64,000 nucleotides of DNA from an uncultured Oscillospiraceae bacterium (GCA_902472555.1 CABROF010000001.1:108404-172403); one strand, 5' to 3'; shown: positions 40,521 to 54,737, counted from the stretch's first letter. Numbers and translations are program-made. The notes: generated by a model from the sequence alone, not told the origin.

Positions 40521-42449
40521 TTAAGCCGGCGGAATTTTGCTGTTTTCTCTGATCTCATCTTGTGCCGCCATTTTGGACGGTCTCCGGTGCATCAGCCATA
40601 ACGGTGCCCGGACCATAGAATCCTTCAAATCGCTTGTGTCAACCGGCAATAAGGGAGACAAATATGCATATCCGAAGGACCTGAGGGCCGTTGTATGCAG
40701 CAGCAGGCCAATAATTCCGATGGTAATGCCAACACCGCCCAATAAGCCTGATAATATCAAAAAAATCCACCGCAGCAGGACCTCCTGTTCATTGGCGGAG
40801 GATACAACAAAACCGGAAACTGCAGTAAGCGCAACCACGATAACAAGCGGCGCGCCTACAAGCCCGGCCGACACTGCAGCCTCCCCCATAACTAAAGCGC
40901 CTACAATACTAATCGTTTGTCCGATAGGCTTGGGAAGCCGCAGCCCCGCCTCTTTCAATATTTCAAAAATCAGCAAAAATACAACAGTTTCGATTAGCGC
41001 TGTAAATGGCACGCCTTCCCTGGCCGCTGCCATAGTAAAAAGCAGAGAGGTCGGAATCAATTCCTGATGGAATGTAGTCAGCGCTACATACAGGCTCGGC
41101 GCAAGAACCGATATAAAAAAGGAAATGAAACGGAATATACGGATGAGAGACGAATATGCGGATCTTCCGTAATAATCTTCTGCAGCCTGAAATGCCTCTA
41201 AAAATAAATAAGGCGCAGTCAGTACAAAAGGGGTGCCATCCACGATAATTCCGATCCGCCCCTCCAATATTTTTGCGGCTAAGACATCCGGTTTTTCCGT
41301 ATGACCGAGAGTGGCAAAAATAGACAGCGGCGCATCTTCAATGAATTGTTCTATATAGCCTGATTCCAATATTGCATCCGTATTGATCGCCTGTAAGCGC
41401 CGTTTTGCTTCATCAATCAGCTTCTGATTGGCCAGGCCCTTAATATATACGATATTTACCAGTGTCTTTGTTTTTTGGCCAATCCGCATATTTTCAAAGG
41501 TTAATGCCGGATTTCGGATTTTACGCCGGATCATTGCCGTATTGGATCTAAGATTTTCATTAAAGCTTTCTTTGGGGCCGCGTACTACAACTTCCGTGCT
41601 CGACTCGTTGATTGACCGAATTTCATATCCTTTTGAACTAATGATAATGCCTGTCGTACAGCCGTCAAGAAGCAGGACCGTATCTCCCATCAGACAGCCT
41701 TCAACCACCTGATTCATGTCCGCCGCTTCCTCAATATCTCCGACTGACAAAAGTAATTCCTTTAAAATCCTGATATTTGCATTATCATGGGCGGCTTCGT
41801 CCGGTTCCGTATTTTCCTCCGCCTTCGCGCCGTCCTTTTCTCCGATAAACAGGTCCCCACCTTGACTATCTGGATCATCAGCAAAGTTCCTACCCTGTTT
41901 TTTTTCTTTCCCTTTGTTCCGTCTGTTTCGTCTTTCTCGTCTGCTCTGCTGAAGGTATTTTACGTTTCTCTCCGGTTCAGCCTCTTCGCCCGCCTCCGCC
42001 TCGTCGTCCATTTCTGTTTTTTTTTCACATGAACCATTGAAAAGTGTACGACCATACATCAGGGGCTGGATGATATCATTATTGATCACATCGCTGTCCG
42101 CCAGGCCATCTACAAAAATCAGCAGCACCTTTTGCGGCTCCGATGATATTTTCTGTTGGTTCGCCCTCTGTTCAAACAGGGCCCCACCCTGATTGCGGCT
42201 CTGACTCTTGAGATTGTTTCTCAGGTCAAACTGAAATTCACGGAATCTTACATCTGTTGTGTCTTTGAATAAGTTTTTTAGGTATGTGCGGTTTTGATTG
42301 ATATTAGCAGAAATTTTCCCCAAGCCTTCTATTTCACCGTAGCTGCCGTATGGAGCCGAATTCTGTGCGGCAGCTCCTTCTGCGCCGGAAGCGGAAGACT
42401 GCTTTCTATATTGTCTGTATTTTATTTTGCTTACAAGGTAGTCCAGCAT
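40521..42449 (-). CDS. gerAA: Spore germination protein GerAA family, enlarged by a ~90 aa charged low-complexity insertion
   Basis: Start taken at MLDYLVSKIKYRQ. Conserved GerA core (GIIVDGTPFVLTAPYLF...) with C-terminal TM helices. The insertion KKTEMDDEAEAGEEAEPERNVKYLQQSRRERRNRRNKGKEKKQGRN... is absent from typical GerAA proteins. Confidence 0.8.
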   Translation of the reverse strand: MLDYLVSKIKYRQYRKQSSASGAEGAAAQNSAPYGSYGEIEGLGKISANINQNRTYLKNLFKDTTDVRFREFQFDLRNNLKSQSRNQGGALFEQRANQQKISSEPQKVLLIFVDGLADSDVINNDIIQPLMYGRTLFNGSCEKKTEMDDEAEAGEEAEPERNVKYLQQSRRERRNRRNKGKEKKQGRNFADDPDSQGGDLFIGEKDGAKAEENTEPDEAAHDNANIRILKELLLSVGDIEEAADMNQVVEGCLMGDTVLLLDGCTTGIIISSKGYEIRSINESSTEVVVRGPKESFNENLRSNTAMIRRKIRNPALTFENMRIGQKTKTLVNIVYIKGLANQKLIDEAKRRLQAINTDAILESGYIEQFIEDAPLSIFATLGHTEKPDVLAAKILEGRIGIIVDGTPFVLTAPYLFLEAFQAAEDYYGRSAYSSLIRIFRFISFFISVLAPSLYVALTTFHQELIPTSLLFTMAAAREGVPFTALIETVVFLLIFEILKEAGLRLPKPIGQTISIVGALVMGEAAVSAGLVGAPLVIVVALTAVSGFVVSSANEQEVLLRWIFLILSGLLGGVGITIGIIGLLLHTTALRSFGYAYLSPLLPVDTSDLKDSMVRAPLWLMHRRPSKMAAQDEIRENSKIPPA

Positions 42450-42639
42450 GGATGTTTCACTTCTTTCGATAAAAATAATACAAACAGAAACAGCACTGAT
42501 ATAAATCGTGCTTATTTTTACCGAATTCGCTTGATTTATGAAACATACGCTGTTGTAAAAAAAGGAAACCCTTAAAAAAACGGATTTCCTCTTAAAATAA
42601 GTCACATCAAATAAATCAGAATCTTTATATGAATCAATT

Positions 42640-43278
42640 TCAGCAGGTCTGATCTGCAAATTTTTTTAAAATGTAAAGTCCGACCCTTCCGCTTTTTTCC
42701 GGATGAAACTGACAGGCAAAAATTTGCTTTTGGGCAACAGCGGAATGAAACGAAACACCGTAGTCCGTATAGGACGCAACGATATTTTCATCCTGCGAGC
42801 GCAGATAATAGGAATGAACAAAATAGACATAAGCATTTTCCATATCTTCCAGCAGACTGCCGGCTTTTGTTCTCTCGAGGGAATTCCAGCCTACATGCGG
42901 GACCTTCAGCCCCGGCATCTCAGGGAAGCGTACAATCGTGCCCTTAAAAATGCCCAGCCCGCTGACTCCCGGACTTTCCTCACTCTGTTCAAACAACAGC
43001 TGCAGCCCCAAGCAAATCCCCATAAACGGACGGCCGCATGAAATGACATCATAGATCGTGTTCACCAAATTCCGGCTCACCTGCCGTCCGCTACACAGGA
43101 CCCGACCCTGGATTGCATCCATTGCCTCTCCGAAAGATCCTACCCCTGGCAGAATTACCCGGTCTGCAGACAAGATCTCATCCCGATCTCTGGTAATAAC
43201 GCAATTTACATGCAAGGCATGCAAGGCATTTTTAACACTTAACAAATTTCCGGCCCCATAATCGATTACTGCAACCAT
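42640..43278 (-). CDS. hisH: Imidazole glycerol phosphate synthase glutaminase subunit HisH (class I GATase); no hisF adjacent
   Basis: 212 aa. Catalytic Cys in GICLGLQ, the HVGWN motif and FHPE; close to E. coli/B. subtilis HisH over the full length. Confidence 0.8.
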   Translation of the reverse strand: MVAVIDYGAGNLLSVKNALHALHVNCVITRDRDEILSADRVILPGVGSFGEAMDAIQGRVLCSGRQVSRNLVNTIYDVISCGRPFMGICLGLQLLFEQSEESPGVSGLGIFKGTIVRFPEMPGLKVPHVGWNSLERTKAGSLLEDMENAYVYFVHSYYLRSQDENIVASYTDYGVSFHSAVAQKQIFACQFHPEKSGRVGLYILKKFADQTC

Positions 43279-47707: not shown

Positions 47708-48421
47708 TTACAGTCCGATTCTGGTGAAAATCTCTTTATATGCTTCTTCAACATTTCCCAGATCCCGCCGGAATCTATCCTTATCCAGCTTTTCTTTGGT
47801 TTTGGCATCCCACAGACGGCATGTGTCAGGAGATATCTCGTCAGCCAATATGATTTCGCCGCCCAATGCAGGGCACCTTCCGAATTCAATTTTGAAGTCA
47901 ACCAAAATAATCCCGATTTTTGCGAAAAACTCCTTCAGCACCTCATTAACTGCAAAGGTTGCGGCAGCAATATGATTCAGCTCCTCTTGTGTGACCAAGC
48001 CTAATGCCATGGCATGATAGTCATTAATTAGGGGATCCCCCAGCGCATCGTTTTTATAGCTGTACTCTAAGATCGTACACTTCAGCGCGGTTCCTTCCGG
48101 TACGCCGTACCGCTTTGAAAAGCTGCCTGCTGCAATATTGCGCACGATCACCTCCAGCGGTACAATTTCCACTCTGCGCACAGCAGTCTCCCGATCACTC
48201 AGCTCTTCGATAAAATGTGTTTTGATCCCCTTACTCTCCAAAACCCGAAAAATCAAATTTGACATTCTGTTATTGATAACGCCTTTTCCTACAATTGTTC
48301 CTTTTTTCTGTCCGTTAAATGCCGTAGCATCATCTTTATAATCTACAATGTAAACATTTTCATCCTCTGTTTTATATACTTTTTTTGCCTTTCCCTCATA
48401 AAGCATTTCCCGTTTTTCCAT
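47708..48421 (-). CDS. purC: SAICAR synthetase
   Basis: Start at [16 protein letters not shown] with an AAAGGAG RBS. Canonical PurC. Confidence 0.9.
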
Positions 48422-48573
48422 CTCAATATCTCCTTTCCTGAAAACGAATAGGCAAGCTCCTACCCTTGCGTTAATAAACAGGTTCCTACCCTTAAGCAAG
48501 CTCCTACCCTGCGTTAGTTAAACAAGACCCTACCCTGTTACAGCACAGGGTAGTCCCTGCCGTGAATGGACTG
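48422..48573 (-). promoter_or_regulatory. purC leader and intergenic region: four direct copies of AGGGTAGGRNC (two ~44-bp units) plus an 8-bp hairpin just after the guaA-paralog stop
   Basis: Plus-strand copies ..CTCCTACCCT.. at about 48457, 48483, 48501 and 48527, spaced 26/18/26 nt. Hairpin CTACCCTG-ttacagca-CAGGGTAG at 48530-48553. Read directly from the sequence. Confidence 0.6.
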
Positions 48574-49863
48574 TTACTCCCACTCTATGGTTCCGGTGGG
48601 CTTAGGCGTCAAGTCATATAAAACCCGGTTCACACCTTTTACTTCAGAGGTGATACGGACTGTAATCTTCTGAAGCAGAGAAAATGGGATGTCTGCAACA
48701 GAAGCGGTCATAGCATCCACCGTGTTTACGGCACGGAGTATCACCGGCCAATCAAAAGTACGGGCATTTTCTCGTACCCCGACGGACTTGAAATCCGGGA
48801 TTGCAGTAAAATACTGCCATACACGACCCTCCAAGCCTGCTTTGGCAAACTCTTCCCGCAGAATTGCATCTGATTCCCGAACAGCCTCTAATCGTTCTCT
48901 GGTAATTGCGCCCAGGCAACGCACACCAAGGCCGGGTCCCGGAAAAGGCTGCCGATATACCATATTATCCGGAAGACCGAGCGCTGTTCCACAAGCCCGC
49001 ACTTCATCTTTGAAAAGCATTTTTAACGGTTCTACCAATTCAAAATCCAGGTCCTCCGGCAGGCCGCCCACATTGTGGTGGCTTTTTACCGCTTTAACGG
49101 TCTTTGTACCGGATTCAATAATATCCGGATAAATGGTCCCCTGTGCAAGAAATCGAATACCCTCCAATTTTCTGGCTTCCTCTTCAAAAACACGAATAAA
49201 TTCTGTACCGATGATTTTCCGCTTTTGTTCCGGATCCGCCACATTAGACAATTTATCCAGAAAACGGTCTGAAGCATCCACATATACCAAATTTGCATCC
49301 ATTTGATTGCGGAACACATCCACCACCTGCTCCGGCTCTCCCTTGCGAAGAAGGCCGTGATTTACATGGACGCAGGTCAGCTGCTTTCCGACCGCACGGA
49401 TAAGCAGCGCTGCTACCACGGAAGAATCAACCCCGCCGGACAGCGCAAGCAGCACCTTTTTATTTCCCACCTGACGGCGCACCAGCTCTACCTGATCGGC
49501 AATAAAATTTTCCATATTCCAATTTGCCTCTGCTCCGCATTTATCAAACACAAAACGGGAAAGAATCCGTTTGCGCTCTTCGTCCGGCTGCGGCCATGGC
49601 GCCTCTCCGTTATGGTCAGCACAAAGGATTGGACACCCGGACTCATAAACAGCCCGAGAAGCATCAATTGCTGCCCCGTCAACGATCCGATTCGGACCGC
49701 CGTTGAGAATAATTCCTTTGACATTCGGAAGCGCTGCCAGCGCTTCCGCAGAGAGATCATGGGGGTGAATTTCTGAGTATACGCCTAAAGCACGAACCTC
49801 CCGGGCAATTTTTGGGTTTTCCTCACTTCCTAAATCGAGGATAAGGATCATGTCTTGTTTCAT
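48574..49863 (-). CDS. GMP synthase paralog: intact ATP-pyrophosphatase and dimerisation domains, but a truncated, catalytically dead GATase domain
   Basis: 429 aa. P-loop [11 protein letters not shown] and the conserved GuaA C-terminus ..PTGTIEWE are present. The N-terminal ~110 aa align to the first half of the GATase domain, but the nucleophile elbow G-x-C-x-G is replaced by CADHNGE and about 90 aa including the His/Glu region are missing, compared directly with the canonical guaA at 51246-52799. Confidence 0.75.
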   Translation of the reverse strand: MKQDMILILDLGSEENPKIAREVRALGVYSEIHPHDLSAEALAALPNVKGIILNGGPNRIVDGAAIDASRAVYESGCPILCADHNGEAPWPQPDEERKRILSRFVFDKCGAEANWNMENFIADQVELVRRQVGNKKVLLALSGGVDSSVVAALLIRAVGKQLTCVHVNHGLLRKGEPEQVVDVFRNQMDANLVYVDASDRFLDKLSNVADPEQKRKIIGTEFIRVFEEEARKLEGIRFLAQGTIYPDIIESGTKTVKAVKSHHNVGGLPEDLDFELVEPLKMLFKDEVRACGTALGLPDNMVYRQPFPGPGLGVRCLGAITRERLEAVRESDAILREEFAKAGLEGRVWQYFTAIPDFKSVGVRENARTFDWPVILRAVNTVDAMTASVADIPFSLLQKITVRITSEVKGVNRVLYDLTPKPTGTIEWE

Positions 49864-49881
49864 ACATCCTGCTCCTTTCTA

Positions 49882-51072
49882 TCAGCTGGTAAAATTATCA
49901 AAATACCCCTGTATTAAAATTACCGGAGTTCCCTTATCTCCGGATCCGCTGGTCAGATCGCTGAGTGAGCCAATAAGGTCCGTAAGCCGCCGGGGTGTCG
50001 TTCCCTGAGAAGCCATATCGCCTAAAAGGTTGTCCTTTTTTTCCTTGATCCGGACTTCAATTGCTTTTTGCAGCGCCTCTCCGGATAAAGCGGCGAAATC
50101 GTTATCCGCTAAATACTTCAGCTTGATTTCATTCGGGGTTCCTTCTAAGCCGGGCGTATTGGCAACTGAAACACATGGATCCGCCAGCTCCCATATTTTA
50201 CCTACAGGATCTTTGAAGGCACCATCCCCGTAAACCATAACTTCTACATGCCGGCCGGTCTGCTGCAAAATCTGCTTCTGGACATCCAACACCAAATCCA
50301 CACAGTTCTGCGGAAAGAGCTTGATTTTGTCCTCCGTAGATTTATTAGAGCCCAAAAGACCGAAATCTTGATTAAAGCCGCTGCCCTCCACCGGCGCATT
50401 CAGAATCTCATCCAGGCCATATACGCGTTCGGCACCGGCAGTTTTTAAAATGCGCTTTGTTCTGGCACGGGAATGAATGTCACAATGAAGTACATTTTTT
50501 GTATACTCTAATATACGCCGAGCATCATTGGCAAAAACGATTTCACATTCTGCACCGGACTGACGGATCAAATCCCCATAGTATTGTACGTAATCCACAC
50601 CGGTAAAAGGATGTTTATTTTCTCCGAACAATGCTCTGTACTGACTGAGCGTCAGCAGGTCCGTATACGGATTAATGCCTGCTTCATCAAGCTGGTCCAA
50701 TGTCACTAACTCATTTCCGACCTCATCACTCGGGTAGCTGAGCATTAAAATAACTTTTTTCGCACCTTGTGCAATACCGCGGAGACAGATTGCAAAACGA
50801 TTTCTGGAAAGAATCGGAAAAATGACGCCGATGGTTCCGCCGCCTAATTTGGACCTTATGTCAGCAGCAATCGCAGAAACCGAAGCATAATTCCCCTGCG
50901 CACGCGCAACCACGGATTCCGTGATGGAAATGACGTCCTTGTCCCGCAGACCAAAGCCCTCCTGTTCCGCTGCCTCCAATACGCTTCTGACGACAATCTG
51001 CGCTAAAGGATCACCCTCCCGGATGATCGGGCATCGAATTCCTCTTGATACGGTACCAACCTTTCGTTCCAT
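49882..51072 (-). CDS. CofE-like gamma-glutamyl ligase family protein (F420-0:gamma-glutamyl ligase fold) with internal insertions
   Basis: 396 aa. N-terminal PIIREGDPLAQIV..KDVISITESVVARAQG and C-terminal ..GDKGTPVILIQG match conserved CofE/FbiB ligase motifs (KEGDDLAELI, ..VVISKAEGR, GIPVVLVRG). GGGAGG RBS. Assigned from memory of the family, not from a search. Confidence 0.5.
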   Translation of the reverse strand: MERKVGTVSRGIRCPIIREGDPLAQIVVRSVLEAAEQEGFGLRDKDVISITESVVARAQGNYASVSAIAADIRSKLGGGTIGVIFPILSRNRFAICLRGIAQGAKKVILMLSYPSDEVGNELVTLDQLDEAGINPYTDLLTLSQYRALFGENKHPFTGVDYVQYYGDLIRQSGAECEIVFANDARRILEYTKNVLHCDIHSRARTKRILKTAGAERVYGLDEILNAPVEGSGFNQDFGLLGSNKSTEDKIKLFPQNCVDLVLDVQKQILQQTGRHVEVMVYGDGAFKDPVGKIWELADPCVSVANTPGLEGTPNEIKLKYLADNDFAALSGEALQKAIEVRIKEKKDNLLGDMASQGTTPRRLTDLIGSLSDLTSGSGDKGTPVILIQGYFDNFTS

Positions 51073-51245
51073 AGCAACCTCCCATGTCGCCGTCGGCGAC
51101 TGTAATCATAATAAAAAAGCATGCTTTTTATAAATTCAGCGGATCTCAGCGCATTTTCTGTAAATCACAGTGCGAACCCAATCTGACGCTACACCTCGTG
51201 CGCCGTAATACGCCGCAGATTTTCTTGCTGAAACGCGGTGAATCC

Positions 51246-52799
51246 TTACTCCCACTCGATCGTAGCCGGCGGTTTACTGGTAACATCGTACACAATTCGA
51301 TTCACAGACGACACCTCGTTCACAATTCTGGAAGAAATCCGCTGCAGTACATCATACGGCAGCCGCGCCCAATCAGCCGTCATAAAATCAGTCGTAGTGA
51401 CTGCCCGCAGTGCAATCGTATAGTCATATGTACGCGCATCCCCCATTACACCTACGCTCCGCATATTGGTCAGAACCGTAAAATACTGACTCAGCTGATC
51501 CTCGAGTCCTGCGTTTGCGATTTCTTCCCTGAAAATGCCGTCCGCTTCCCTCAAAATATCCAATTTTTCCTTTGTGATATCTCCGATAATCCGGACTGCC
51601 AATCCAGGGCCCGGGAACGGCTGCCGCATAACGATTTCCCGGCTGAGTCCCAGTTCAAATCCGCAGCGCCGAACTTCGTCTTTGAATAAATCACGCAGAG
51701 GCTCTACCACCTCCCGAAATTTGATATATTTCGGAAGGCCCCCTACATTGTGATGCTTTTTGATCACTGCGGAATTTCCGGCGCCGCTTTCTATGACATC
51801 CGGGTAGATTGTCCCCTGAACAAAATAGAAATCTTCCGCGTTTCCGATTCGCTCTGCTTCATCTTGGAAAACTTCTATAAATTCACGCCCGATAATGACG
51901 CGCTTTTCCTCAGGATCGGAGACGCCGTCCAGCTTGTCTAAAAATCGCTGCTGTGCATCTACTACAATTAAATTTGTCTCAAACTGATTACGGAAAACAT
52001 CTTCGATCTGCGCACGTTCTCCTTTTCTCATAAGTCCGTGATCCACAAAAATACAAGTCAGATTTTTGCCCACTGCTTTGCTTACAAACGCAGCTGCTAC
52101 AGCAGAATCTACTCCGCCGGATAAAGCCAGCAGGACCTTTTGTTCACCGAATTTTACCCGCAGTTCCTGTATCGTTTTTTTAACAAAACCGCTCATAGTC
52201 CAATCGCCGCTACATTTGCACACATCATATAAGAATCGTTTCAGCATGGCGGCGCCATTTTCTGTATGTTGGACTTCAGGATGGAACTGAACGCCGATGA
52301 TTTTACCGTCTGCACTTTCCATCGCGGCAATCGGACATCCTTTTGAAGCGGCACGTACAACAAAACCTGCCGGTACGCGCTCCACATAATCCGTGTGGCT
52401 CATCCAGCAGGTATTGGTTGCATCTGCATCTGCAAATATTGTGCAGCCTTTATCCAGCCGCACTGCTGTCATACCGTATTCTTTGTTTGCGGCTCCGCCC
52501 TCGGCTACAGTTCCGCCCAGCAGGTATGAGATCAACTGCATTCCGTAACAAATTCCTAACACCGGACACCCGAGCCGCAGGAGCTCCGGTTCACATTTTA
52601 ATGAATCTGCCGCATATACGTTTGCCGGTCCGCCTGTCAGGATGATTCCTTTGGGTTTTTTCATCCGGATTGCCTCTACGCTTGTGCTGCAGGGAAGCAC
52701 TTCACAATATACATGATTTTCCCTGATACGACGCGCAATCAACTGACTGTACTGCGCCCCGAAATCAAGCACGATCACAGTTTCCACATTTGCCTGCAC
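51246..52799 (-). CDS. guaA: GMP synthase (glutamine-hydrolysing), canonical
   Basis: 517 aa. GATase with the GICYGMQ nucleophile and FHPE; P-loop SGGVDS; C-terminal dimerisation domain. Confidence 0.9.
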
Positions 52800-53079
52800 A
52801 AATCACCACTCCTGACTGATAATCTGGCCCGCGGCGCACATACATTCTATACGGCACGGATTGCTGCATGTCTTTCATTTTGCCGGCTCGGTTCAATCCC
52901 CCGCCTCGGAATCACACGATAAAAGCTGTGCGATTCATTTACACTATATCATCAACCGCGCCATAGGTAAAATTGATATTCATTATGATATTCATTTATT
53001 TTACTTATATACAAGCAACGTGCAAGCAGGGTCGGGACCTGTTTATTTCCGCAGCGCCCCTCATGCTGCGATCTATCCT

Positions 53080-54339
53080 TTATCCGATAAAACGGGGTAA
53101 TACTGATCCCCCGTACGGAATTACCCACACCTTCGCATTCGGTCCATGCTTTGCTAAAGAATCACGGAACGCTTGCTGGGCATTGCTGTACGGTTTGAGA
53201 AAAATATTTTGTACTAAATCCGGCTCTAACTCTGAAACGAGTAAAATGTCCGCATTTTCCAAAACCATACCGATTGCAGCGGCTTTATGACCTCCAAGCT
53301 GGAAGTCCCGACCGATCCGTTCAACCATTTCCTGCGGACAGGCTGCTTCTGTCATCCATTCTTCAAATACTTTTTCACCTAAACCCTCTTTGCAGGAACC
53401 GATCAAAATAATGGTCCCACCCTTTTTAACAGCATATTTTGCATTGTCTAATGCCTTTTGTGTCTGATATAAATTAATGTCCTTCGGCGCGCCTCCTTGG
53501 GAAACAATCACAATATCAGCCTGCTGTGAAATCTCCTTCATATACAGCTGATCCAAAAACTTAGCTCCCACCCTGTGTGCCTCTATAGGATCACCCGCAA
53601 CCGCTTGAACAATTTTTTTATGTTCATCTAAAACCACATTAAGGATAAAATCAATTCCGCATATTTTTCCGGCCTCTTCTATGTCTGCCCGAACAGGGTT
53701 GGAGCCTATTTCGCCTGCACATGCAAGAGGATTAACCATATGTCTGTGGTTGCACTGTATTGCTTCCCTGGTCGAGACTCCAGGCATAATTGCTTTGGCC
53801 CCGCCGCTGTATCCGGCAAAATAGTGATATTCAATATTCCCTAAACAGATCCGGCGGTCTGCACTGGCCACAGTGCGTGTAATGTCCACCGGAGTGCCCC
53901 GTGATGTGACACCCATTCGAATGCAATCTTCCGGGTCGCTGTCCACTGCCCTGATTTGTTTCAGGATGTCTGGTCCGGCTAATTTTTCCATTTCACTCCG
54001 GGTCTGTTTTCGATGACTGCCAAGACCAAACACCAAAGTAACATCAGCAAGGTTGACAGCAGCAGCCTTTAGTTCCTCTAAAATTGCCGGCATTACAAGC
54101 GCAGTCGGCATAGGTCTTGTAATATCGCTTGTTATAATTGCAATTTTTTCTCCAGGCCGTACAATCTCCCTGAGCCGGGCCGTGCCGATAGGACTTTTTA
54201 ATGCATTGCGCACGACATCCGCGTCCTTCGGGATTGATATCGGGTTTGGTAAAATAGCTCCTAATAGATTATTCTGTGGTATATAGACCTCCTGTGTTCC
54301 ATTACCGAATCCAAATTCAAATTTTAACTGATCCTCCAT
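53080..54339 (-). CDS. larA: LarA-family nickel-pincer-cofactor-dependent racemase/epimerase (lactate racemase-like)
   Basis: 419 aa. DUF2088-like N-terminal domain plus LarA C-terminal domain (..GLGSHRKQT.., ..SQGGAPKDINLYQTQKAL..). AGGAGG RBS. Confidence 0.75.
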   Translation of the reverse strand: MEDQLKFEFGFGNGTQEVYIPQNNLLGAILPNPISIPKDADVVRNALKSPIGTARLREIVRPGEKIAIITSDITRPMPTALVMPAILEELKAAAVNLADVTLVFGLGSHRKQTRSEMEKLAGPDILKQIRAVDSDPEDCIRMGVTSRGTPVDITRTVASADRRICLGNIEYHYFAGYSGGAKAIMPGVSTREAIQCNHRHMVNPLACAGEIGSNPVRADIEEAGKICGIDFILNVVLDEHKKIVQAVAGDPIEAHRVGAKFLDQLYMKEISQQADIVIVSQGGAPKDINLYQTQKALDNAKYAVKKGGTIILIGSCKEGLGEKVFEEWMTEAACPQEMVERIGRDFQLGGHKAAAIGMVLENADILLVSELEPDLVQNIFLKPYSNAQQAFRDSLAKHGPNAKVWVIPYGGSVLPRFIG

Positions 54340-54426: not shown

Positions 54427-54681
54427 TTAGTCTTGTTTATCGAGCGCTATTTTTAAGGCTTTTGCTAATTGGTCAGGACAAGATGTCGTTTTATATCCAC
54501 AATGAATACCACTGCATTTTTGTATGACTTCATCTGCACGCATGCCCTCCACAAGCCGGGCGATCCCTTGCAGATTGCCGTTACATCCACCGGTATATTT
54601 TACATTTTTTACAATACCATCTTCAACATCCAAATCAATCTTTGAAGAACAGGTACCTGAAGTTATATACGAATAGTGCAT
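54427..54681 (-). CDS. TSCPD-domain protein (TIGR03905-like)
   Basis: Contains the signature TSCPD motif (..YKTTSCPDQLAKAL..) and conserved cysteines. Start moved to the ATG with a GGAGG RBS. Confidence 0.6.
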   Translation of the reverse strand: MHYSYITSGTCSSKIDLDVEDGIVKNVKYTGGCNGNLQGIARLVEGMRADEVIQKCSGIHCGYKTTSCPDQLAKALKIALDKQD

Positions 54682-54737
54682 TTTAAACATCCTCCGACTT
54701 AATATTAGCCTGTTTTTCAGGCCCTACCCTAAAAATA

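Follow-up and report, generated by a model that had tools for sequence, protein, structure and literature searches.

A GMP synthetase paralog without a glutaminase triad, beside a CofE-fold protein in an uncultured Oscillospiraceae bacterium: a candidate ammonia-dependent isozyme

Why would a bacterium that encodes a complete glutamine-hydrolyzing GMP (guanosine monophosphate) synthetase also keep a second copy that has lost the residues for hydrolyzing glutamine, and why does a gene resembling that of CofE, the coenzyme F420-0:L-glutamate ligase, stand between the two? This question is raised by a stretch of 64,000 nucleotides (nt) from an uncultured Oscillospiraceae bacterium (GCA_902472555.1 CABROF010000001.1:108404-172403), hereafter the window, in which positions are counted from the first letter. 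Three open reading frames (ORFs), all on the minus strand, lie where a preliminary description of this DNA had placed them: a canonical guaA, a CofE-like gene, and a second guaA-like gene whose product is here called GuaA' (Table 1). The answer preferred here, and held with middling confidence, is a guanine-nucleotide module of three separate enzymes, in which GuaA' acts as an NH3-dependent isozyme of GMP synthetase.

The anatomy of GuaA' is best appreciated by comparison with the canonical GuaA of the same window. The latter matches NF000848 with 765 bits as well as PF00958, and covers positions 2–189 of the 190 positions of PF00117, meaning the whole glutamine amidotransferase (GATase) domain; its triad is intact in the alignment, with the Cys in GICYG and the His and Glu in FHPE. 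GuaA' is 53% identical to it over the ATP-pyrophosphatase (ATPPase) and C-terminal domains. The PF00117 match of GuaA', however, comprises only residues 8–80, corresponding to profile positions 2–76 of 190, and TIGR00888, which describes the N terminus of guaA products, yields 49.9 bits versus a cut-off of 172. Where the two proteins are aligned, GICYGMQ is replaced by CADH..NGE, about 75–88 residues are absent, and PWPQPDE stands in place of FHPE. The deletion takes away both the nucleophile elbow and the HPE region, and with them the Cys-His-Glu triad of class I GATases. GuaA' is without the very glutaminase feature that defines its annotated family. A paralog with P-loop and GMP-synthase C terminus but no glutaminase triad, as proposed in the preliminary description, is borne out by the profile search for the decayed GATase, and proper alignment does not restore the triad. 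What is left of the domain is an N-terminal stub of 85 aa, predicted by AlphaFold2 to form a compact β-α-β-α-β-α-β half-domain (pLDDT ~80–90) that stops at the expected nucleophile elbow; no Cys is conserved in the stub among the aligned sequences.

The boundaries of this deletion are the same in paralogs of Neglectibacter, Borkfalkia, Beduini, Traorella, and several Lachnospiraceae, and they recur across Clostridia, Erysipelotrichales, and Bacteroidales, the range over which the family is found. The stub itself is 52–66% identical across Clostridia and Bacteroidales, compared with 32–34% to canonical GuaA, and the ATPPase domain is conserved at 72–84%. Many Clostridia contain short forms of ~326 aa without any GATase remnant, in which an N-terminal peptide NxRPExMxRIxT is conserved. 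They belong to the same clade as the GuaA' of the window (72–79% identity in the ATPPase region), which shows that the glutaminase is dispensable for the clade. In Bacteroidales, a 435-aa GuaA' is the standard second "guaA" (Parabacteroides gordonii, Bacteroidaceae, Alistipes); the protein search places it in clusters whose members run into the thousands, and each of these is annotated "glutamine-hydrolyzing GMP synthase." The gene order of the window is identical in four independent assemblies (ENA, Logan, and the NCBI metagenome-assembled genome GCA_965317325.1), and the arrangement is thus not an assembly artifact. GuaA' belongs to a stably kept cross-phylum family and is not a decaying copy. 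The earlier proposal that more than a simple duplication is at hand is supported by the conservation of the stub across phyla, the Bacteroidales clusters, and the agreement of the four assemblies. GuaA' sequences of Clostridia and Bacteroidales are 71–75% identical, whereas two clostridial canonical GuaA proteins (that of the window and L013:3517-5052) share only 61%; this pattern points to unusually strong constraint or to horizontal spread among gut bacteria.

In the synthetase part, GuaA' scores 456 bits with TIGR00884 and 126 bits with PF00958 (GMP_synt_C), and its model superimposes on solved GMP synthetases with a TM score of 0.75 in Foldseek. Formation of adenyl-XMP (XMP, xanthosine monophosphate) is lost in mutants of PfGMPS and MjATPPase: these affect Pf D371, E374, K386, H388, and H389 (IK(T/S)HHN), R539, K547, and E553, and the Arg of the Mj 243–250 loop (PMC10526850). 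For GuaA', invariance was judged in 18–21 aligned sequences. The SGGVDSS P-loop is kept and is invariant in GuaA' and canonical sequences alike, as are, within GuaA', the lid-loop residues D247 and E250 (PD247IIE250S) and K260, H262, and H263 (VKSHHN). In the C-terminal XMP loop, R413, K421, and E427 (IEWE) are invariant and show the +8/+6 spacing of the Pf enzyme; R368 is invariant too. Long and short forms of GuaA' alike keep every residue that is known to be required for adenyl-XMP formation.

ATPPase domains or subunits act independently of the GATase, and external NH3 is usable in vitro (PMC10526850). The chemistry and the nitrogen source that we infer for the module would be as follows. 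Canonical GuaA converts XMP to GMP with glutamine; GuaA' would adenylylate XMP at O2, after which free ammonia would aminate the intermediate. Such an NH3-dependent isozyme beside the glutamine-dependent GuaA would be suited to the ammonia-rich gut, where free ammonia is abundant. The use of free NH3 was one option named in the preliminary description, and it is the likeliest reading of GuaA'.

The gene neighbors of GuaA' were surveyed by a motif-based scan of metagenome contigs, which gave ~105 further GuaA' genes; these are not dereplicated, and abundant species are counted repeatedly. The commonest neighbor is a canonical guaA immediately upstream; ~17 metagenome loci show it, as does Parabacteroides gordonii (GCA_003439895.1) with a gap of 50 nt. 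Other recurrent neighbors are guaB, encoding IMP (inosine monophosphate) dehydrogenase, xpt, encoding xanthine phosphoribosyltransferase, and purA. The products of guaA, guaB, xpt, and purA make or consume XMP and IMP. In one locus, an xpt-like gene (L169:1184-1858, named from sequence reading and not by a hidden Markov model) lies just upstream of a short-form GuaA', which fits XMP as the GuaA' substrate. A gene consisting of a GATase only was not found adjoining GuaA' in ~130 loci with GuaA'. The CofE-like gene is present in only one of the ~105 sampled loci (L196), and Bacteroidales have the tandem of guaA and GuaA' without it. What is conserved as a unit is not the trio: GuaA' is a very widespread stand-alone family, mostly found in tandem with guaA or beside guaB, xpt, or purA. 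In several contigs that are unrelated to one another (L097, L134, L185, L190, and L004:8641-9699), GuaA' has a tyrosine recombinase/integrase gene immediately downstream. Integrative mobilizable elements are known to integrate at the 3' end of canonical guaA (PMC5704250), and GuaA' appears to be a target of the same kind.

The product of the middle gene, a protein of 396 aa, matches PF01996 over residues 11–389 with 180 bits (E 7e-53). A sequence search against the PDB gave no match and a profile search only marginal ones (E 0.014); the fold was settled by a fold search, which together with the PF01996 match upholds the CofE fold proposed earlier. The accompanying label of a CofE-type γ-glutamyl ligase turns out to be an assumption. 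The CofE equivalog models TIGR01916 and NF009809 reach 33.6 and 34 bits versus cut-offs of 180.65 and 274, and they do so over residues 14–71 only. In CofE, F92 stacks on the F420 ring, R234 stacks on F420 from the partner subunit, and G153–C155 also contacts F420 (PMC10861534). CofE residues 55–109, which include F92, align with residues 67–240 of the CofE-like protein, that is, with an inserted domain. The chain then stops 8 residues past the ...RG/QGY motif, whereas CofE runs on for another 29 residues including R234, a tail that is absent here. On these grounds the CofE-like protein is not an F420 ligase. None of cofC, cofD, cofG, and cofH was seen among the annotated neighbors in the inspected CofE-like loci.

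The invariant motifs of the CofE-like family are TES..A.AQGN, LSRNRF, YPxDEVGN, HPFTGxDY, H..R, GLLGSN, GDGAFKDP, ELADP, GTTPRR, and SGSGDKGTP. Many of them, including LSRNRF, YPxDEVGN, HPFTGxDY, and H..R, sit in the insert, in which many polar residues are invariant and which bears a weak likeness to Rossmann domains that bind sugar phosphates. A conserved Cys is missing from the family, and no glutaminase triad can be recognized among its conserved residues. The protein is linked to GuaA' and PurA and is an enzyme of the CofE fold whose substrate-binding domain is new. A phage or defense origin was considered and rejected; in PHROGs and PADLOC the CofE-like protein has no match, and GuaA' matches generic PP-loop or GuaA entries only.

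Close homologs of the CofE-like protein number more than 8000 (72–87% identical) and occur in Lachnospiraceae, Oscillospiraceae, Acutalibacteraceae, the Christensenellales-like Borkfalkia, Erysipelotrichales, and Mogibacterium; clustering of the family at 50% identity gives 1668 clusters, and at least 599 species genomes carry it. Its linkage was assessed in 72 species-level loci, which are phylogenetically related, so that counts do not equal independent events. GuaA' is immediately downstream of the CofE-like gene in 22 of them (31%; 5 long and 17 short forms, gaps of 2–61 nt) and within 4 kb in 2 more, purA is immediately downstream in 4, and a divergent LysR-type regulator is located upstream in ~10. 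Because the genes flanking the pair vary between lineages, the pairing is not merely one inherited block. Fusion proteins were not seen. The best guess for the CofE-like protein, of low confidence, is a nucleoside triphosphate (NTP)-dependent ligase or phosphotransferase, with the insert binding a ribonucleotide-type substrate; that the gene repeatedly lies directly upstream of GuaA' or purA weakly suggests a role in the branch leading from IMP to GMP and AMP (adenosine monophosphate). The linkage is asymmetric, in that about one-third of the CofE-like species have an adjoining GuaA' and almost no GuaA' loci have a CofE-like gene. This asymmetry is the central result; together with the Bacteroidales tandem, it makes GuaA' independent of the CofE-like protein. 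Rather than obligate subunits, the two are most plausibly enzymes with related functions in the guanine/adenine branch.

Two contexts of the wider family were noted in addition. In a contig of a DPANN archaeon (L088:5346-7911), a nitroreductase-family gene is found directly upstream of a distant homolog of the long CofE-fold protein, which recalls FbiB (CofE plus nitroreductase) in split form; the homolog is followed by a 236-aa protein without Pfam match, and a xanthine/uracil permease is nearby. In some Lachnospiraceae, a QueH-like gene (DUF208, epoxyqueuosine reductase-type) comes after the CofE-like gene and purA (L014, L016, and L018; at ~9400–11500 in L014 and L018), so that the three genes make up a conserved string.

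Several observations weigh against the module as proposed. The Km(NH4+), the Michaelis constant for ammonium, of canonical GMP synthetases is high, 10–174 mM (PMC10526850), and efficient use of NH3 by GuaA' is therefore assumed. The GVMGDxRTY loop is described as invariant across GMP synthetases and touches the XMP phosphate of the neighboring subunit (PMC10526850); it reads GV(K/R)(D/N/E)xxRxx(W/Y) in every GuaA', where MGD is replaced and the Arg (R368, ~Mj R249) is kept. This divergence could reflect a change of substrate or of partner. The FVD(H/N)G motif of canonical enzymes likewise reads HVNHG in GuaA'. Furthermore, the reading as a simple NH3-dependent enzyme leaves the conserved 85-aa stub unaccounted for. 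In the CofE-like protein, the acidic motif positions of CofE are changed (KAEGR to RAQGN, DASN to LGSN, and GEG to GSG), and TDT is changed to GDG. The acidic residues of these motifs reportedly ligate Mn2+ in CofE, and given the changes even an NTP- and Mn-dependent ligase chemistry is uncertain. With respect to linkage, two-thirds of the CofE-like loci have no purine neighbor, and distant subfamilies of long CofE-fold proteins (~35% identity; DPANN archaea and Bacteroidales/Marinilabiliales) show neither a purine context nor a shared partner and so offer no hint of function. Because the stub is unexplained and the loop has diverged, a trans-acting glutaminase, a heterodimer with GuaA, and an altered substrate stay alive as explanations, and they are weighed below together with a direct partnership of the two neighboring proteins.

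Such a partnership would be a two-component amidotransferase or ligase, in which the CofE-like protein replaces the glutaminase and hands nitrogen or an amino acid (Glu/Asp) to adenyl-XMP on GuaA', giving GMP or an N2-substituted guanine nucleotide. The genes adjoin each other in nearly a third of the CofE-like species, in several flanking contexts and with long and short GuaA' forms, and GuaA' itself lacks a domain to donate nitrogen. In the CofE reaction, GTP (guanosine triphosphate) is used to link an amine (L-Glu) with an activated acyl group (PMC10861534), and the weak likeness of the insert to sugar-phosphate-binding domains also speaks for the partnership. Against it, all but one of the ~105 GuaA' loci lack the CofE-like gene, Bacteroidales GuaA' has no CofE-like neighbor, and two-thirds of the CofE-like loci are without GuaA' within 8 kb. 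The lack of fusion proteins, of a conserved Cys or recognizable glutaminase triad, and of the metal-site-like acidic CofE motifs counts in the same direction, and the explanation is considered unlikely. It is a shade less credible still that the CofE-like protein represents a new class of nitrogen- or amino-acid-delivering amidotransferase partner, constituting with GuaA' an undescribed way for gut Clostridia to make GMP, or an N2-modified guanine nucleotide, without glutamine. That a xanthosine or guanosine nucleotide is glutamylated, as put forward in the preliminary description, is pure speculation.

Ammonia could also be fed to GuaA' by a class I glutaminase acting in trans, as in archaea, this being either HisH or the GATase of canonical GuaA in a mixed complex. 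Two-subunit GMP synthetases exist, the subunits of which associate only transiently, and E250 of GuaA' equals Pf E374, a residue involved in cross-talk with the GATase (PMC10526850). The HisH of the window is an intact, bona fide equivalog encoded in the same gene string (Table 1), and guaA and GuaA' often stand in tandem. The comparative data argue otherwise: none of the ~200 loci surrounding GuaA' or the CofE-like gene (L001–L210) matched a hisH query, a separate GATase gene is likewise missing from these loci, and many GuaA' loci have no canonical guaA nearby. HisH, moreover, has its own canonical partner in HisF. The role of trans-acting glutaminase that had been suggested for hisH consequently finds no comparative support, and the explanation as a whole is improbable.

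To a similar degree we doubt that GuaA' is a regulatory, "prozyme"-like subunit that forms a heterodimer with canonical GuaA via the C-terminal dimerization domain and tunes its activity or allostery. The tandem of guaA and GuaA' is conserved across phyla, the dimerization domain is conserved, the diverged loop is the one that enters the XMP site of the neighboring subunit, and the stub could serve as an interaction surface. But all catalytic residues of the ATPPase are invariant, which is unusual for a pseudoenzyme, and the short forms and many long forms are encoded away from canonical guaA, beside guaB, xpt, or purA.

A changed substrate or nucleophile is very unlikely. In this case the substrate of GuaA' would be a different xanthine-type nucleotide, or the group it inserts would be sulfur or a different amine, with the CofE-like protein in the same new pathway. 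The diverged XMP-phosphate loop and the change of FVD(H/N)G to HVNHG would agree with this, as would the Borkfalkia pair, which comes after a cysteine desulfurase and ThiI; the PP-loop relatives LarE and ThiI transfer sulfur. The C-terminal XMP loop K...IEWE and R413 are nevertheless intact, the neighbors guaA, guaB, xpt, and purA encode enzymes that make or use XMP and IMP, and the Borkfalkia context is a single case. Finally, a decaying duplicate, pseudogene, or assembly artifact, to which the missing glutaminase half might be attributed, is effectively refuted by the conservation data, namely by the deletion boundary shared among Clostridia, Erysipelotrichales, and Bacteroidales, the conserved stub and ATPPase domain, the intact ORF with its good ribosome-binding site, the thousands of members, and the four agreeing assemblies.

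The preferred reading of GuaA' as an NH3-dependent isozyme can be placed among known systems. With bacterial two-domain GuaA (NF000848; PDB 1GPM, 7SBC, and 5TW7), GuaA' shares the ATPPase, the lid loop, the dimerization domain, and the C-terminal XMP loop, and it scores 432 bits to 7SBC; it differs by the missing triad, by retaining only the first ~80 GATase residues or none, and by the diverged GVMGDxRTY loop. The archaeal ATPPase subunit GuaA-B (PDB 6JP9 and 2DPL) is likewise an ATPPase without glutaminase, with the same domain content as the short ~326-aa GuaA', and it reportedly forms GMP with external NH3 in vitro (PMC10526850). In contrast to it, GuaA' is of bacterial descent, with only 330 bits to the Mj subunit; no gene for a GATase subunit is found near GuaA', and it coexists with a complete GuaA. 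By analogy, GuaA' may be compared with NH3-dependent NadE and AsnA, synthetases that use free ammonia without a glutaminase and occur beside, or alternate with, forms that depend on glutamine. Like GuaA', NadE belongs to the PP-loop enzymes (Foldseek match of 1xng to GuaA'); the NH3 dependence of GuaA' is only inferred. The CofE-like protein, in turn, resembles CofE and FbiB's N-terminal domain (PDB 2PHN and 7ULD) in its fold and in remnants of the N-terminal strand and of the xAxG, xxSN, and GxGxxGxP(V) motifs. Unlike CofE, it has a ~150-aa Rossmann-like insert and a second insert of ~35 aa, lacks the F92 segment and the R234 tail, shows three changed acidic positions, and occurs in a context of purine instead of F420 genes.

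Literature searches yielded no description of a bacterial glutaminase-less GuaA paralog or of an NH3-dependent isozyme for GMP synthesis, nor any link of PF01996 or CofE to guaA. GuaA' and the long CofE-fold proteins are large, unstudied families of gut bacteria that are misnamed in databases. In the human gut microbiome few genes are as widespread as GuaA', yet it is uniformly annotated as glutamine-hydrolyzing though unable to hydrolyze glutamine. If it is ammonia-dependent, the view of how nitrogen flows into the guanine nucleotides of gut anaerobes would have to be revised, and metabolic models built on the current annotation would change, as would the expected effects of glutamine-analogue inhibitors. 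The long CofE-fold family is named "coenzyme F420-0:L-glutamate ligase" in its many carrier species, which presumably do not make F420; its link to GuaA' and PurA offers a functional lead.

Table 1. Positions of the features of the GMP synthetase locus in the window
Feature	Position	Strand	Evidence
Canonical guaA, glutamine-hydrolyzing GMP synthetase, 517 aa	51246..52799	-	NF000848, PF00117, PF00958, alignment
Spacer between guaA and the CofE-like gene, 173 nt	51073..51245	-	sequence reading
"Long" CofE-fold protein, 396 aa, PF01996 superfamily, not a CofE equivalog	49882..51072	-	
Rossmann-like α/β insert of the CofE-like protein, ~residues 85–235	50368..50820	-	
GuaA', 429 aa, GMP synthetase paralog without glutaminase triad	48574..49863	-	profiles, alignment, Foldseek
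Vestigial N-terminal GATase half of GuaA', residues 1–85	49609..49863	-	PF00117 positions 2–76 only
ATPPase and dimerization/XMP-binding domains of GuaA', residues 118–429	48577..49512	-	TIGR00884 456 bits
Terminator-like hairpin between the GuaA' stop and purC	48530..48553	-	consensus match
Free-standing hisH-type class I glutaminase	42640..43278	-	TIGR01855 217 bits vs cut-off 105

The stop of the CofE-like gene and the start of GuaA' are separated by 18 nt, which hold an AAAGGAG ribosome-binding site. The spacer upstream of the CofE-like gene contains an AT-rich palindrome (AAAAAGCATGCTTTTTT), a promoter-like hexamer pair (51134-51105), and a GGGAGG ribosome-binding site. Since promoter-like sites are no commoner in the scan than in shuffled sequence (23 vs 18 ± 4.7), no promoter is claimed. 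A riboswitch or leader RNA upstream of the genes was rejected as well: Rfam returned nothing relevant for the whole window at the gathering threshold, for 50900-53300 at an E-value threshold, or for loci L001 and L005, and a regular expression for the purine-riboswitch core found nothing relevant in ~200 loci.

Downstream of GuaA', the genes purC, purF, purB, purA, and hisH follow on the same strand. The hairpin preceding purC (48553-48530) has a 9-bp stem with 5 G-C pairs and a T-rich tail, and is a consensus match only. Because of this terminator-like hairpin, guaA, the CofE-like gene, and GuaA' may form a transcription unit of their own inside the same-strand purine cluster. Of the original notion that the genes lie inside a pur operon, the same-strand cluster stands, whereas a single operon is put in question. 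The purC ORF as listed (47708-48499, minus strand) starts at TTG, 26 codons upstream of the likely ATG; gene callers give purC as 237 aa in other assemblies, and the hairpin is upstream of both candidate starts.

On the other side, directly upstream of guaA, a LarA-family nickel-pincer-dependent racemase is encoded (53080-54339, minus strand), with malate racemase LarAH6 as the best match (562 bits vs a cut-off of 500). No larB, larC, or larE is seen among the genes neighboring it, and GuaA' was rejected as its LarE (TIGR00268, 36 bits vs a cut-off of 150). The racemase gene is preceded by that of an 87-aa TSCPD-domain protein (54427-54690, minus strand). At the far end, the purC-purF-purB-purA string closes with hisH, which has neither hisF nor any other his gene next to it and whose 3' end overlaps the predicted start of a gerA ORF (40521-42659) by 20 nt.

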